Source: Escherichia coli (lineage in GTDB: Bacteria; Pseudomonadota; Gammaproteobacteria; Enterobacterales; Enterobacteriaceae). Taken from it: 64,000 nucleotides of DNA. The DNA lies in the NCBI RefSeq assembly GCF_003334255.1, contig NZ_QOWU01000023.1. The stretch is one strand, 5' to 3'. Of this stretch, positions 2,544 to 64,000 are shown one piece after another. The notes below the pieces were generated by a model, which did not search any database, had not been told where the DNA came from, and saw only the letters and a list, made by a program, of their open reading frames with translations. The position numbers and the translations under genes are program-made. Positions within the stretch are counted from its first letter, which is position 1. Every line of letters begins with the position of its first letter.

Positions 2544-3797
2544 GTGAGTCACTGGGCTACATTCAAACAAACAGCAACAAATTTATGGGTGACCCTTCGG
2601 CACGACATTCTCGCGCTGGCCGTCTTTTTAAATGGATTGCTTATTTTTAAAACAATCTATGGTATGTCGGTCAATTTGCTTGATATTTTCCATATCAAAG
2701 CATTTTCAGAGTTGGATCTCTCCTTGCTGGCAAACGCCCCACTCTTTATGCTCGGCGTCTTTCTTGTCCTGAACTCCATTGGCTTACTGTTCCGGGCAAA
2801 GCTCGCATGGGCAATCAGTATCATTTTGTTGTTGATAGCGCTAATTTACACCCTGCATTTTTATCCCTGGCTGAAATTTAGTATTGGATTTTGCATTTTT
2901 ACGCTGGTGTTTTTGCTGATACTGCGCAAAGACTTCTCCCACAGTAGCGCCGCAGCCGGGACAATTTTTGCATTTATTAGTTTCACGACATTACTGTTTT
3001 ACTCAACCTACGGTGCGCTTTATTTAAGCGAAGGTTTTAATCCGCGAATAGAAAGTTTGATGACCGCGTTCTATTTTTCGATAGAAACCATGTCAACCGT
3101 CGGCTATGGCGATATTGTCCCTGTTTCTGAATCAGCACGATTGTTCACTATTTCGGTCATTATTTCCGGCATTACCGTTTTTGCCACATCTATGACCTCA
3201 ATTTTTGGTCCGCTTATCCGCGGAGGATTCAACAAACTTGTAAAAGGAAACAATCATACAATGCATCGTAAAGATCATTTTATTGTTTGCGGACATTCGA
3301 TTCTCGCCATCAATACGATCCTGCAACTGAATCAACGCGGACAAAACGTAACGGTTATCAGCAACTTGCCTGAAGATGATATCAAGCAACTTGAGCAACG
3401 CTTAGGCGATAATGCTGATGTTATCCCCGGTGACAGTAATGACAGTTCTGTATTAAAGAAAGCGGGAATCGATCGTTGCCGGGCCATTCTGGCGCTGAGT
3501 GATAACGATGCAGATAACGCGTTTGTTGTACTCTCGGCAAAAGATATGAGCAGTGATGTCAAAACAGTTCTCGCCGTCAGTGATAGCAAAAACCTGAATA
3601 AGATTAAGATGGTACATCCGGATATCATTCTCTCACCGCAACTGTTTGGCAGCGAAATTCTGGCGCGAGTTTTAAATGGTGAAGAGATTAATAATGATAT
3701 GCTCGTTTCAATGTTGTTGAACTCAGGTCATGGTATTTTCAGCGATAACGATGAACTAGAAACGAAAGCTGACAGTAAAGAATCGGCGCAAAAATAG
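2544..3797 (+). CDS. kch: Voltage-gated K+ channel Kch (417 aa), GTG start
   Basis: K+ selectivity filter TVGYGD; C-terminal RCK/Rossmann domain (HFIVCGHSILA). Confidence 0.88.
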   Translation: MSHWATFKQTATNLWVTLRHDILALAVFLNGLLIFKTIYGMSVNLLDIFHIKAFSELDLSLLANAPLFMLGVFLVLNSIGLLFRAKLAWAISIILLLIALIYTLHFYPWLKFSIGFCIFTLVFLLILRKDFSHSSAAAGTIFAFISFTTLLFYSTYGALYLSEGFNPRIESLMTAFYFSIETMSTVGYGDIVPVSESARLFTISVIISGITVFATSMTSIFGPLIRGGFNKLVKGNNHTMHRKDHFIVCGHSILAINTILQLNQRGQNVTVISNLPEDDIKQLEQRLGDNADVIPGDSNDSSVLKKAGIDRCRAILALSDNDADNAFVVLSAKDMSSDVKTVLAVSDSKNLNKIKMVHPDIILSPQLFGSEILARVLNGEEINNDMLVSMLLNSGHGIFSDNDELETKADSKESAQK

Positions 3798-11631: not shown

Positions 11632-12368
11632 TGTTTTTTGGACTCCCTCATTATAATTACTGGTATTAACCAGCATGTGTAATCCCGGATTGGGACCCTG
11701 CACAGGCTCGGAGACTTTCTGCTGTCAGGTTACTTTATCGTTACGTATTACTATCACCGACTTTATTTATTCTGGTGATTCAGACGATCACCTTATGTCG
11801 ATTCGTACTGTGTCTCCCCTGTCGAGACACATTATTCTTTCGCGACGCTCTTTAATTGTTAATTATTCTCATTACCAATAAAGAATCGTCTGGCGGTTGC
11901 CCGGAAAGTACCAAATGCGGTTCTTACTCGCCAATACATTTTGCAAAATTGTTAAGCAATTCTCTTTTATTGACCGTATCAGAATCTATAGCTTGCATCC
12001 ATGCCTTAACAAACATCTTTCAATTCAATCAAATAGAGATTGGCTAAGCATGTCTATCTTTTCTGATTACAGTTCCAGTAGTGAAATGCACAATAATTTA
12101 ACAATTGATTATTATTTAGCACTTTCCTCTACCAAAGGCAGTGGAATTACTAATATCATTTCAATTATTCTTCAGCAAGCCCAGGATTATGATGTGGCGA
12201 AAATAACATGATGGTGAGGAGAAGCAGTTAAGGAAATCCTTATAACTAACTGTAATTTGAGAAGAATATTTTTACCTATTCCTTTTGCTTTTGATAACTG
12301 CGCGGGAACAAAGTAAAAATAATGACGAAGTAAACGGAGCATGGCAGCTCCGTTTCATTTGAAAGGAA

Positions 12369-24664: not shown

Positions 24665-25200
24665 TCACTTTCAAAAGTCCCTGAACTTCCCAACGAATCC
24701 GCAATTAAATATTCTGCCCATGCGGGGAAGGATGAGAAGCTTCGACCAAGGTTCGACTCGAGCGCCAGCGAGAGAGCGTTGCCGCAGGCAACGACCCGAA
24801 GGGCGAAGCGCGCAGCGCTGAGTAATCCTTCCCCCACCACCATCACTTTCAAAAGCCCCGGAATTCTCAAACGAATCCGCAATCAAATATTCTGCCCAAG
24901 CGGGGAAGGATGAGAAGCTTCGACCAAGGTTCGACTTGAGCGCCAGCGAGAGAGCGTTGCCGCAGGCAACGACCCGAAGGGCGAAGCGCGCAGCGCTGAG
25001 TAATCCTTCCCCCACCACCATCACTTTCAAAAGCCCCGGAATTCTCAAACGAATCCGCAATCAAATATTCTGCCCAAGCGGGGAAGGATGAGAAGCTTCG
25101 ACCAAGGTTCGACTTGAGCGCCAGCGAGAGAGCGTTGCCGCAGGCAACGACCCGAAGGGCGAAGCGCGCAGCGCTGAGTAATCCTTCCCCCACCACCATC
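24665..25200 (+). repeat. rttR: Three tandem 178-bp repeats distal to the tRNA-Tyr genes (rtT RNA / tpr region)
   Basis: Units begin tcactttcaaaag at 24665, 24843 and 25021; each ends with the tRNA-Tyr 3' end ccttcccccaccacca. Confidence 0.8.
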
Positions 25201-41159: not shown

Positions 41160-41446
41160 CAGTTATATCTCCTCCGATGACGGTAATCGGGGGAGATAAT
41201 ATAAATTCCTGCTTATTGTATTTCTTCATACTACCTGGACAGGTCGTTAATCAGAATTGCGAGCCTGTACCACACCCTGCACGAAACCACTGCAACAGCT
41301 GTTGAAAAGCCGGAATGTACTCTTCATTGCAAACATTTCAGGGATGAAGTGAAGATGAATTGCGACGTAGTATCCACACCAAGCCGGCGTTATCCGGTGA
41401 GGCGCAATGTTGCGGGGCTTTATCCCTGGTGGCATTGGTTGCTGGA

Positions 41447-41513
41447 AAGAGAAAACCCCCGCACGTTGAGAGGTAAAACCTGACAACAAAACGGGGGCTA
41501 ATCTTGAAACCAG
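41447..41513 (-). ncRNA. rdl: Rdl antisense RNA of the ldr type I toxin-antitoxin unit
   Basis: Minus-strand sequence gtctggtttcaagattagcccccg...cgtgcgggggttttctc ends in a GC hairpin plus U-run; complementary to the ldr 5' leader. Confidence 0.55.
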
Positions 41514-41562
41514 ACACTTCAAGAATAGCCGCAAAATGTTGTCATTACAACAAGGCGGCTAT

Positions 41563-41670
41563 ATGACGCTCGCGCAGTTTGCCATGATTTTCTGGCACGA
41601 CCTGGCAGCACCGATCCTGGCGGGAATTATTACCGCAGCGATTGTCAGCTGGTGGCGTAACCGGAAGTAA
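41563..41670 (+). CDS. ldr: Ldr toxin peptide (35 aa), type I toxin
   Basis: Translates to MTLAQFAMIFWHDLAAPILAGIITAAIVSWWRNRK; absent from the ORF track because it is short. Confidence 0.8.
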   Translation: MTLAQFAMIFWHDLAAPILAGIITAAIVSWWRNRK

Positions 41671-41718
41671 GGTGAAAACGGGCGTCAGGCTGCCGTGATG
41701 GCAATATGCGCCCGAAAC

Positions 41719-41752
41719 CGGCCGCAGGGGTAACAGCCTGCGGCCTTTTTTG
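41719..41752 (+). terminator. Rho-independent terminator after ldr
   Basis: ggccgcagg-ggtaaca-cctgcggcc hairpin followed by TTTTTT. Confidence 0.7.
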
Positions 41753-41818
41753 TATCCGGCACCCATGAAAAAAGTCTTAACGCAGAACGCTAATACTTTA
41801 TTTTTCAAGCAAAAAAGA

Positions 41819-42682
<864 letters not shown>

Positions 42683-54201: not shown

Positions 54202-54885
54202 ATTTCACCGAGTCCTAATCATTCTTGTAACATCCTACACTTTTGTGCTTATTGCCTATAGTGAACCACGAGAATAATTAAAGACATAAGTGTTCAGATG
54301 ACGGATATCTCATTAGCAGTGATATAACGTAAGTTTTTGTATCACTACACATCAGCCCCCTTCACAGCTGATCAAAATTGATCACGCTCCAATATGCTGG
54401 CAAGATGAAAATGATAACCAGTAGCACAATAACAACGATAGGCCAGAAAACCCATTGACCAAAAATGAATATCGATGTTTTTTGCTTTTTCTTATTAGTA
54501 ATGCAAAAATGGCGCATATTGTTTTTGTTATGCAGATACATCAAGCGAAATTCCCATAACTAATTAGGATTATTACAAAAAATCTTCACCAAATTTTTTA
54601 ACCGCTGTTTGTTGTAATATTTTTGCCATATTTATAGTAACGAATTGGAATAAGTAACGACAACTTAGGGAATAACTCGATATAAACTCACCTTTGTAAG
54701 GGGGATGTTAAATATATATTAATTCCTGTGTTCCTGATTTTGCCCGGTAATAGAGAATTATTCTCTGAGAAGCTCATCATGATTGCACCATACAAATATC
54801 ATGATGATAAGAGGATATTATTCATTGATTTAAACAAAATGACAAAATCCATAGACCCATAGTCTGGGTACTATATAGGAGTGGT

Positions 54886-57852: not shown

Positions 57853-59772
57853 TCATACCCGGCGCTTAAACTGCCCTGCATCAATGCCATGTTGCTTCAT
57901 TTTCCGCCACAGCGTAGTGCGGCCGATCCCAAGTAAAGCCGACATTTCCTGAATGCGACCGCCTGTGACCTGGGCTGCGTTAATAATTGCCTCTTTTTCA
58001 ACTTCCGCAAATGACAGACTGGTGGAAAGGCGGGTGGCGCTGACATCATCTGTCGCCTGCTCGGTAAACAGATGTTCCGGCAAATCACTGACGCGAATGC
58101 GCCCGTTATCACTACTCAGAGCAAGATTCTCGATGACGCTGTAAAGTTCAAAATCGTTGCCTGGCCATGCACAAGAAACCAGGCGAGCGAGGGCATCGTC
58201 ATCAATTTTCAGCCGCGTAGAGAAGCGTTTTTCAAGACTGCGTAATTTGTTATTCACCAGCGCCGGAATGCTGCCACGCCGCATACGCAGAGGCGGGATG
58301 GTAATTTCAAATGCATGCAGCGCGTAATACAGCTGGCGACTAAAACGATTTTGTTCCACCAGCATTGCGAGGTCCGCGGTCGTTGTTGCAATCACTTTGA
58401 CATCAATTGGTATTAAACGCCGCGCATCCAGTCGCGTGATAACCCCCTGCTTGATAACCTGAAGCAAAGCAGACTGTAACTCCACCGCCAGATATTCAAT
58501 CTTTTCAAGAAACAGCGTGCCGCCGTGTGCCAGTTCCAGCCGACTCAGACGGCCATTTTCATTGTCCGTGCGATCGCCACCAATAAATTCTTCCGCCAGC
58601 GCAGCATCACCATATAACTCACAATTGACGGCGATATAAGGACCTGCAGCACGCTCGCTTTCATTATGAATTGCCTGACTTAGCAGTGCCTTGCCCACGC
58701 CCTCTTCTCCACAAAGCAGGACAGGAAAGCTACTGCGCGCCGCCTGGCGACCAAAATGAATCAAGCGGCGGGTTTGCGGATCGTCCTGTGGCATATGAGC
58801 GAAGGTATGGCTGACTTTTCCTAATTGACTGGTCATCAACTGCCGCATCTGTTCCACAGGATGGAGCAACAAAATAAAGCTGGTTCCCTGCGTTTCTATT
58901 ATCGGTTTAAGGGTTATCACCGCATCAATAAACTGATGCTGGCTTTCAAAGGTTGCTTCTACGTGTTTGAGCGGATGTGCCTGTTTTATTGCTTGTTGCA
59001 ATACGGCGGGTAACGTTAAGAGTTCAGTGATTGCCCGTCCCTGACTTGCCGTCGCGTCAAGGCGCAAGACCCGCGCCGCCTGGGCATTAATAAATTGCAA
59101 ATTACCCTGCTCGTCCCAGCTAATCACGCCATCATCCATACTTTCTAACAGGGCATTAAGTTGATTTAAATGACGGTTAGTTTCAGCGAGCAAACTGTCC
59201 GTCAGCAGTAAATTTCCGACCTCGCGGGCGATTGCCAACGTCAACGGCAAATCAGCTGCGGTAGTTTGCTCAACCGGACACGCCAGCGCTATTGTTCCCG
59301 TCAATCGGCCCTTGCTGTCAAACAACGGCGTTGCACAAAAGGCCCAGTTCCAGAGTACCTGTTTGAAATGTTGATCGGCCATCGTTTTCACGGCCTGACC
59401 AGAGATAGCCGCTAACGATAGCGCACAAGTACCAATAATTCCCTCGGCGCAATACGTGCCGTCATTGAATCCCAGTGCACTTAGCTGCTGCAAGGTTTGC
59501 GGATCGCCATTACGGCTGAGAATGCAGGCGGTTTCATCGAGGATAAACAGCGCACACTCTCGCGGTGCCATATATTCCCAGGCATCTTCCAGCGCAGCCT
59601 GCCCGAGCGTCAGCATCGCTTTCTTACGCCGATAAATAGAAGCAAATGTCACGCCCTGGGCCTGATGTGGTACGTTCCATGTCTCCCGTTTCATCAGCTT
59701 ATTGCATCGCTCCCAGGAGGTTGCAATTAAGGGAGATATGCCCCGACCATCGTTGTTAAAAGCGCCACTCAT
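57853..59772 (-). CDS. dhaR: Dihydroxyacetone operon transcriptional activator DhaR (639 aa)
   Basis: AAA+ enhancer-binding-protein-like central domain (GEEGVGKALL), C-terminal HTH; divergent from dhaK. Confidence 0.88.
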   Translation of the reverse strand: MSGAFNNDGRGISPLIATSWERCNKLMKRETWNVPHQAQGVTFASIYRRKKAMLTLGQAALEDAWEYMAPRECALFILDETACILSRNGDPQTLQQLSALGFNDGTYCAEGIIGTCALSLAAISGQAVKTMADQHFKQVLWNWAFCATPLFDSKGRLTGTIALACPVEQTTAADLPLTLAIAREVGNLLLTDSLLAETNRHLNQLNALLESMDDGVISWDEQGNLQFINAQAARVLRLDATASQGRAITELLTLPAVLQQAIKQAHPLKHVEATFESQHQFIDAVITLKPIIETQGTSFILLLHPVEQMRQLMTSQLGKVSHTFAHMPQDDPQTRRLIHFGRQAARSSFPVLLCGEEGVGKALLSQAIHNESERAAGPYIAVNCELYGDAALAEEFIGGDRTDNENGRLSRLELAHGGTLFLEKIEYLAVELQSALLQVIKQGVITRLDARRLIPIDVKVIATTTADLAMLVEQNRFSRQLYYALHAFEITIPPLRMRRGSIPALVNNKLRSLEKRFSTRLKIDDDALARLVSCAWPGNDFELYSVIENLALSSDNGRIRVSDLPEHLFTEQATDDVSATRLSTSLSFAEVEKEAIINAAQVTGGRIQEMSALLGIGRTTLWRKMKQHGIDAGQFKRRV

Positions 59773-61723: not shown

Positions 61724-63142
61724 ATGGTAAACCTGGTCATAGTTTCACATAGCAGCCGACTGGGAGAAGGTGTCGGTGAATTAGCCCGTCAGATGTTAAT
61801 GAGTGATAGTTGTAAAATCGCCATTGCCGCGGGAATTGACGATCCACAAAATCCCATTGGTACCGATGCCGTCAAAGTGATGGAGGCCATCGAATCTGTT
61901 GCTGATGCCGACCATGTGCTGGTCATGATGGATATGGGTAGCGCATTATTGAGTGCTGAAACTGCGCTGGAATTGCTGGCTCCCGAGATCGCCGCAAAAG
62001 TACGTTTGTGTGCTGCGCCGTTGGTCGAAGGTACACTGGCAGCAACGGTCAGCGCGGCCTCGGGGGCGGATATCGACAAAGTTATCTTTGACGCCATGCA
62101 TGCGCTGGAAGCCAAACGTGAACAACTGGGTTTACCGTCCTCCGACACTGAAATCTCTGACACATGTCCTGCGTACGATGAAGAAGCCCGTTCTCTGGCG
62201 GTGGTCATAAAAAACCGTAACGGCCTGCATGTACGTCCGGCCTCCCGGCTGGTTTATACCTTATCGACATTTAATGCCGATATGTTGCTGGAAAAAAACG
62301 GCAAATGCGTCACACCAGAGAGTATTAACCAGATTGCGTTACTACAAGTTCGCTATAACGATACGCTGCGCCTGATTGCGAAAGGGCCAGAAGCTGAAGA
62401 GGCACTGATCGCTTTCCGTCAGCTGGCTGAAGATAACTTTGGTGAAACGGAGGAAGTCGCTCCACCTACTCTGCGTCCCGTTCCGCCTGTTTCGGGTAAA
62501 GCCTTTTATTATCAACCAGTTTTATGTACGGTACAGGCAAAATCAACCCTGACCGTGGAAGAAGAACAAGATCGATTACGCCAGGCTATTGACTTCACGT
62601 TATTAGATCTGATGACGTTAACAGCGAAAGCAGAAGCCAGCGGGCTTGACGATATTGCCGCAATCTTTTCTGGTCACCATACACTGTTAGATGATCCGGA
62701 ACTGCTGGCGGCGGCAAGCGAACTCCTTCAGCATGAACATTGCACGGCAGAATATGCCTGGCAGCAAGTTCTTAAAGAACTTAGCCAGCAATACCAGCAA
62801 CTGGATGATGAATATCTACAAGCTCGCTATATTGATGTGGACGATCTTCTGCATCGCACCCTGGTCCACCTGACCCAAACGAAAGAAGAACTCCCGCAGT
62901 TTAACTCGCCAACTATTCTACTGGCGGAGAACATTTATCCTTCCACAGTACTGCAACTGGATCCGGCGGTTGTAAAAGGTATCTGCCTTAGCGCCGGAAG
63001 TCCGGTATCCCACAGCGCCCTAATCGCCCGTGAACTGGGGATTGGCTGGATTTGCCAGCAGGGTGAGAAACTGTATGCGATACAACCAGAAGAAACGCTA
63101 ACGCTGGACGTTAAAACGCAACGTTTCAACCGTCAGGGTTAA
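61724..63142 (+). CDS. dhaM: PTS-dependent dihydroxyacetone kinase phosphotransferase subunit DhaM (472 aa)
   Basis: Starts MVNLVIVSHS; multidomain protein of EIIA-, HPr- and EI-like parts. Confidence 0.9.
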   Translation: MVNLVIVSHSSRLGEGVGELARQMLMSDSCKIAIAAGIDDPQNPIGTDAVKVMEAIESVADADHVLVMMDMGSALLSAETALELLAPEIAAKVRLCAAPLVEGTLAATVSAASGADIDKVIFDAMHALEAKREQLGLPSSDTEISDTCPAYDEEARSLAVVIKNRNGLHVRPASRLVYTLSTFNADMLLEKNGKCVTPESINQIALLQVRYNDTLRLIAKGPEAEEALIAFRQLAEDNFGETEEVAPPTLRPVPPVSGKAFYYQPVLCTVQAKSTLTVEEEQDRLRQAIDFTLLDLMTLTAKAEASGLDDIAAIFSGHHTLLDDPELLAAASELLQHEHCTAEYAWQQVLKELSQQYQQLDDEYLQARYIDVDDLLHRTLVHLTQTKEELPQFNSPTILLAENIYPSTVLQLDPAVVKGICLSAGSPVSHSALIARELGIGWICQQGEKLYAIQPEETLTLDVKTQRFNRQG

Positions 63143-63461
63143 GCCACTGTTCGGATGGCATCGTTCTGATGTCATCCGGCAATTTACTCAGCACTAATGG
63201 TTTTTAACTACCTGTTATATTTTTCACCAATTTATGATGATTTTTCTTCGCTAATCACGAACCCAACGCCGCTGGCTGGCTAATAAACAGACGTTATTTG
63301 ATCACTCTATTTCGCCGTTATTTATCCCTTTAATTCCCTTTTCTAAAATGCCTGACAGTTCGCAGAATGAGATTTCGATCATGCAGCTAGTGCGATCCTG
63401 AACTAAGGTTTTCTGATACTTGAATACCGTTTTATTCGGTTTCGCCAAAGGAGAATGATTG

Positions 63462-63924
63462 ATGAAATCCCCCGCACCTTCTCGCCCGCAAAAAATGGCG
63501 TTAATTCCAGCCTGTATCTTTTTGTGTTTCGCTGCGCTATCGGTGCAGGCAGAAGAAACACCGGTAACACCACAGCCGCCTGATATTTTATTAGGGCCGC
63601 TGTTTAATGATGTGCAAAACGCCAAACTTTTTCCGGACCAAAAAACCTTTGCCGATGCCGTGCCGAACAGCGATCCGCTGATGATCCTTGCTGATTATCG
63701 GATGCAGCAAAACCAGAGCGGATTTGATCTGCGCCATTTCGTTAACGTCAATTTCACCCTGCCGAAAGAAGGCGAGAAATATGTTCCGCCAGAGGGGCAG
63801 TCACTGCGCGAACATATTGACGGACTTTGGCCGGTATTAACGCGTTCTACCGAAAACACCGAAAAATGGGATTCTCTGTTACCGCTGCCGGAACCTTATG
63901 TCGTGCCGGGCGGACGCTTTCGCG
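63462..63924 (+). pseudogene. treA: Periplasmic trehalase TreA, interrupted after about codon 154 by IS1
   Basis: [30 protein letters not shown] signal peptide; the reading frame runs into the IS1 end at 63925 and stops immediately. Confidence 0.8.
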
Positions 63925-64000
63925 GGTAATGACTCCAACTTATTGATAGTGTTTTATGTTCAGATAATGCCCGATGACTTTGTCATGCAGCTCCACCGAT
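63925..64000 (-). mobile_element. IS1 end (terminal inverted repeat plus first ~50 bp), element continues beyond the window
   Basis: GGTAATGACTCCAACTTATTGATAGTGTTTTATGTTCAGATAATGCCCGATGAC matches the IS1 terminus as I recall it. Confidence 0.85.

Follow-up and report, generated by a model that had tools for sequence, protein, structure and literature searches.

An IS1 junction at codon 155 of treA in Escherichia coli and the predicted loss of periplasmic trehalase

The last 76 nt of the stretch of Escherichia coli DNA analysed here (64,000 nt, referred to as the window) belong to an IS1 element, which very probably transposed into codon 155 of treA, cutting the gene and leaving an allele that is null for periplasmic trehalase. 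IS1 would have entered treA between nt 463 and 464 and landed with its right end toward the 5' portion of treA, to which its transposase genes run antisense. The first bases of the element would finish a glycine codon and then provide TAA, and the cell would be limited to a 155-aa TreA fragment, with a null phenotype for the periplasmic enzyme. The features on which this reading is based are collected in Table 1.

Table 1. Features at the treA–IS1 junction, with positions in the window
Feature	Position	Strand	Basis or remark
dhaM–treA intergenic region, with treA 5' control region	63143..63461	+	Same as in K-12
Native treA, nt 1–463	63462..63924	+	100 % identity with treA of MG1655 (E. coli K-12)
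Truncated treA reading frame	63462..63929	+	154 native codons followed by one hybrid Gly codon and TAA; from the ORF list and translation
Putative signal peptide, residues 1–30	63462..63551	+	Mature chain 2jf4_A starts at query residue 31
Nine bases adjoining the IS1 end, GCTTTCGCG	63916..63924		Target-site duplication if the insertion is simple; read directly from the sequence
IS1 right (IRR) end, 76 nt up to the window end	63925..64000	-	All 76 nt identical to IS1A in H7 and 2452
IS1 terminal inverted repeat, GGTAATGACTCCAACTTATTGAT	63925..63947		Same end in the complete IS1 (768/769 bp) of 2452 and H7
3' end of insB (IS1 transposase gene), last 19 codons and stop	63940..64000	-	Translation SVELHDKVIGHYLNIKHYQ, then stop

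The junction in treA and the truncated product

Between window positions 58936 and 63924, a segment that includes the dhaM–treA intergenic region, there were zero differences from MG1655, and a simple consensus scan of the intergenic region (63143–63461) detected no promoter-like site. An earlier note on this DNA had described a treA frame intact for about 154 codons, and this is correct, with 63462–63924 corresponding to nt 1–463 of K-12 treA at 100 % identity. After nt 463 the K-12 gene reads on as AGGTATATT, whereas the window has GGTAATGACTCCAACTTATTGAT instead. The breakpoint is unambiguous because base 63925 is a G in the window and an A in treA. The switch to the IS1 terminal inverted repeat had been placed at this same coordinate, and 76 of 76 nt from there onwards match IS1 copies. 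Codon 155 is a hybrid, with G from treA and GG from the element, and encodes Gly in place of the native GAG (Glu). It is directly followed by TAA at 63927–63929, which is the immediate in-frame stop that had been proposed.

A 54-nt pattern for the IS1 end gave one match in the window, compared with 0 expected by chance. The characteristic terminal inverted repeat of IS1 (GGTRATG...CCAACTTAYTGAT) is present at 63925–63947, and a single end of the element lies in the window, as had been stated, with 76 nt of the right end before position 64000. IS1 is oriented antisense to treA and its right end faces the 5' part of the gene. InsA/InsB coding sequence in the window consists of the last 19 insB codons; in a public contig that shares this junction, a 43-aa extension of the insB ORF matches Pfam PF03400 (DDE_Tnp_IS1). 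The naming of the gene as treA and of the foreign DNA as IS1 was borne out, with NCBIfam TreA as the best family for the fragment and an IS1 end equal to that of complete IS1 copies.

The product comprises 155 of 565 aa, about a quarter of TreA. Its best family was NCBIfam NF009774 TreA (E=1.7e-91, profile positions 1–158 of 569), with a score of 307.8, which is below the cut-off of 560 for the full-length protein. The best PDB match was periplasmic trehalase 2jf4, with the fragment aligning to residues 1–124 only of the solved mature enzyme. The trehalase domain of full-length TreA occupies residues 55–532 and the barrel-type sub-domain residues 159–512. The fragment, which stops at residue 155, retains the signal peptide and approximately 100 of the 478 trehalase-domain residues, contains none of the catalytic barrel region and does not have the complete trehalase domain that is needed for activity. 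The catalytic residues, which we take to be Asp312 and Glu496, fall in the missing part. Since the fragment is without the catalytic barrel region, the earlier expectation that the strain would lack periplasmic trehalase is a sound one.

With this loss of enzyme activity, we infer that the strain would not use trehalose at high osmolarity; published K-12 treA mutants reportedly fail to use external trehalose under this condition. The lineage is predicted to be unable to split external trehalose in the periplasm and so to show no growth on trehalose at high osmolarity. E. coli normally carries one treA copy. The null-allele reading covers one 64-kb window, and a second, intact treA copy may be present elsewhere in the genome. 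The next gene after treA, ycgY, is on the opposite strand and treA stands alone; a polar effect on neighbouring genes is therefore not expected.

Strain background and IS1 copies in related genomes

Relative to MG1655, the window contains approximately 15 scattered SNPs and differs in tandem-repeat copy numbers, with 99.98 % identity outside repeats. Eight complete genomes scored as identical to the window over positions 42000–63924. In the two of these eight that were inspected, CFSAN061761 and KL53, treA is intact and encodes the K-12 protein, ycgY is also intact and no IS1 was found downstream of treA for at least 9 kb. The disruption is thus derived and lineage-specific, because relatives identical over 42000–63924 have an intact treA. 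An origin as a K-12 laboratory strain was rejected on the basis of the scattered SNPs and of the full identity with wild isolates over this same segment. A Shigella origin is unneeded, given the high identity to K-12-like E. coli and the presence of no other insertion sequence in the 64 kb.

Tandem-repeat differences were observed elsewhere in the window. The tyrT/tyrV locus (23992–25198) contains three tRNA-Tyr genes and five RtT repeats, compared with two tRNAs and four RtT repeats in the MG1655 record and two of each in strain 2452; either the tandem copy number truly differs or the discrepancy comes from short-read assembly. At 41280–41753 there is a single ldr/rdl toxin–antitoxin unit, with one Ldr ORF (41563–41670) and one rdlD match. 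MG1655, 2452 and KL53 have three 535-bp units at this locus, and the offset differs by 1070 nt, the length of two units. The single unit may result from collapse of the repeat in a draft assembly.

IS1 copies were found near treA in other genomes. The ycgY gene carries IS1 in 26 complete genomes at a minimum of eight positions, with the right end toward treA, a count from a search that joins same-strand pieces only and so leaves out copies in the opposite orientation. The ycgY copy of strain 2452 (positions 3467–4234 of L024) is flanked by an 8-bp duplication. A 2452-like ancestor carrying the ycgY IS1 was rejected as the source of the present allele, as 2452 is not specially close overall and the closest relatives are without that IS1. 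In H7, an IS1 between ychF and ycgV (positions 11735–12503 of L013, corresponding approximately to window 54300–54800) has a clean 9-bp duplication, ACGACAACT. This copy is absent from the window; N18-04097 probably has the same ychF–ycgV insertion, judging by the search pattern. The H7 copy gave rise to misleading rows of 100 % coverage. Such full-coverage matches in complete genomes were rejected because the search had merged the main match with an unrelated IS1 lying close by.

The far side of the element and the recurrence of the junction

In a public assembly index, 20 blocks contain the exact 155-aa product, and NCBI lists it as three protein entries (CAM2940969.1, CUK02606.1 and OWD33391.1); the longest contig bearing it is 68,144 nt, and one carrier of the junction is ERR1948968. 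None of the public contigs with the junction crosses the whole IS1 element, the deepest extending 148 nt into it. Two forms were considered for the far side, a simple insertion of the kind described for H7 and 2452 and a deletion bounded by IS1. Both begin with IS1 transposing into the site at treA nt 463 and both leave treA null. They are about equally likely, each falling slightly short of an even chance. An inversion between IS1 copies leaves both local junctions unchanged and hence is not a separate case.

In a simple insertion, a complete 768-bp IS1 and a short target duplication would be present and treA nt ~455–1698 would follow directly beyond the left end of the element (…GGCAGCATCACC); treA would be interrupted with none of its sequence lost. 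This form has almost even odds. Simple insertion is established as the commonest outcome of IS1 transposition, the nearby IS1 copies are themselves simple insertions (9-bp duplication ACGACAACT in H7, 8-bp in 2452) and in the closest complete relatives the 9 kb downstream contain no IS1 that could have seeded a deletion. The expected distal product depends on the duplication. With a 9-bp duplication, GCTTTCGCG, the treA frame is open for 88 nt into the left end of IS1, and short-read contigs that start within IS1 should therefore give edge-cut products. With an 8- or 10-bp duplication the frame closes inside IS1 and a 401-aa ORF is expected from the ATG at treA nt 493; any duplication length other than 9 bp predicts the 401-aa product, as do contigs that extend deeper into IS1. 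This 401-aa C-terminal TreA product was present in 53 index blocks, many of them with short contigs only.

However, the four likeliest distal products for a 9-bp duplication (for Logan contigs at k=31, offsets −28 and −25; for SPAdes contigs at k=55, offsets −52 and −55) were not on record in the contig index that holds the 155-aa product, while a control, the edge-cut product of one carrier contig (L006), was found there in 29 blocks. An exact-sequence protein look-up of 19 predicted distal products was void, as the same control was absent from it. Negatives from this look-up are untrustworthy for edge-cut proteins from Logan contigs, which the contig index does record. All displayable occurrences of the 401-aa product were alleles with a frameshift or a nonsense mutation and no IS1 junction (+1 at nt 384, W159stop, or −1 at nt 471 or 479), with blocks consisting of short contigs only being out of view. 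Moreover, the 401-, 386- and 352-aa products have no CAM, CUK or OWD accessions, unlike the 155-aa product. Searches of JGI metagenomes for the distal and proximal junctions gave 0 for both, and a search of GTDB representative genomes for both junctions at once also gave 0; these results are uninformative.

In a deletion bounded by IS1, treA would have lost its 3' three quarters, perhaps along with further DNA, and there would be no target duplication. Far-side DNA could have been lost after the entry of IS1, or a resident downstream IS1 could have transposed intramolecularly into treA; taken together, these routes have a likelihood just below one half. The absence of the distal products for a 9-bp duplication from an index with the proximal product in 20 blocks and a positive control is consistent with such a deletion, as is the absence of an annotated C-terminal TreA fragment in the accession series of the 155-aa records. 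In addition, ycgY, just downstream, is a hotspot for IS1 in the same orientation as here, and from the mechanism of transposition an adjacent deletion from a ycgY IS1 would be expected to leave the observed right end against treA. Chromosomal deletions associated with IS1 have been reported in clinical E. coli (PMC10569738). Nevertheless, deletion is a rarer event than simple insertion and the nearest complete relatives have no downstream IS1. The sole comparison to a depth of 130 nt differed by one base from the ycgY copy of 2452. The support for a deletion is wholly negative, consisting of look-ups that returned nothing, with no sequence of the far side of the element among it. A series of deletions from one IS1 end was also considered and rejected, the other truncated TreA products being point mutations or contig ends.

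Eight of eight inspected contigs, assembled with MEGAHIT, SPAdes or Logan from different samples, share the junction string and end 27–148 nt inside IS1, with a depth that scales with the k-mer size of the assembler. Five of the eight are the same as the window over the whole overlap, and the others show two to five SNPs, a stretch of N or a single-base indel. The junction was found in 0 of 5,426 complete RefSeq E. coli genomes. Contig ends inside IS1 are the pattern given by a real junction with a multi-copy repeat in short-read assemblies, and the window is probably the tail of a short-read contig that stops 76 nt into IS1, in which case it could not simply be lengthened past position 64000. 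The junction is genuine and not an assembly artefact, because contigs from three assemblers and different samples all carry it. It is extremely improbable that the treA contig was misjoined to, or ran into, an IS1 k-mer and that treA is in fact intact: an end 76 nt into a repeat would be typical of short-read contigs and other parts of the window have tandem-repeat copy numbers unlike those of MG1655, but the junction string is identical across samples and assemblers, real reads must cover the boundary between unique and repeat sequence even where a repeat ends the contig, and the wild-type continuation AGGTATATT is absent after nt 463.

One metagenome contig (L002) with the identical treA–IS1 junction contains five SNPs that cluster in the 3' end of dhaM and the intergenic region, corresponding to window 62293–63148. 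These could reflect recombination after the insertion event or a mixed-strain consensus.

Other treA disruptions and comparison with known systems

Other disruptions of treA were detected in public assemblies, including a +1 frameshift at nt 384, G477A (W159stop), a one-base deletion at nt 471 or 479, and stops after codon 165 and after codon 229. In GCA_012598025.1, a different insertion sequence with a DDE_Tnp_1 transposase adjoins treA nt 477. As in the present allele, treA is disrupted in these natural null alleles, but by other mutations and in other lineages, and none has IS1 at nt 463. It is conceivable, though unlikely, that treA is repeatedly inactivated in natural E. coli and Shigella and that in some niches this reflects selection for trehalase loss rather than neutral decay; several independent knock-outs might merit a population-level look at selection. 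The treA–IS1 junction provides an exact, heritable lineage marker for isolates and metagenomes. Public records name the 155-aa stump ‘Periplasmic trehalase’, which could mislead comparisons of gene content.

No description of the treA–IS1 allele was found in the open-access literature searched. The allele is a textbook IS1 disruption of a well-studied gene, is already in public sequence records and is of no new kind. As in other gene inactivations by IS1 of the IS1A/IS1R type, the terminal repeat and the end of insB are those of complete IS1A copies and the host frame ends at the junction; here the element is known from 76 nt of one end. Adjacent deletions are a classical property of IS1. A recent example is that of the nfsB deletions reported in clinical E. 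coli (PMC10569738). The present case resembles IS1-promoted adjacent deletions in that an IS1 end adjoins a truncated gene and the remaining treA was not found where expected, and differs in that the deletion would be deduced from absent look-ups, with no sequence showing the missing DNA.

Periplasmic trehalase is a member of glycoside hydrolase family 37, with 2jf4, 2jg0, 2jjb and 2wyn as its solved structures. The gene affected is the same as in laboratory K-12 treA null mutants, and here residues 155–565, and with them the whole barrel region, are absent. In contrast to the laboratory nulls, the present allele is a natural one and lies in a wild background that resembles phylogroup A, with 99.98 % identity to K-12 outside repeats.
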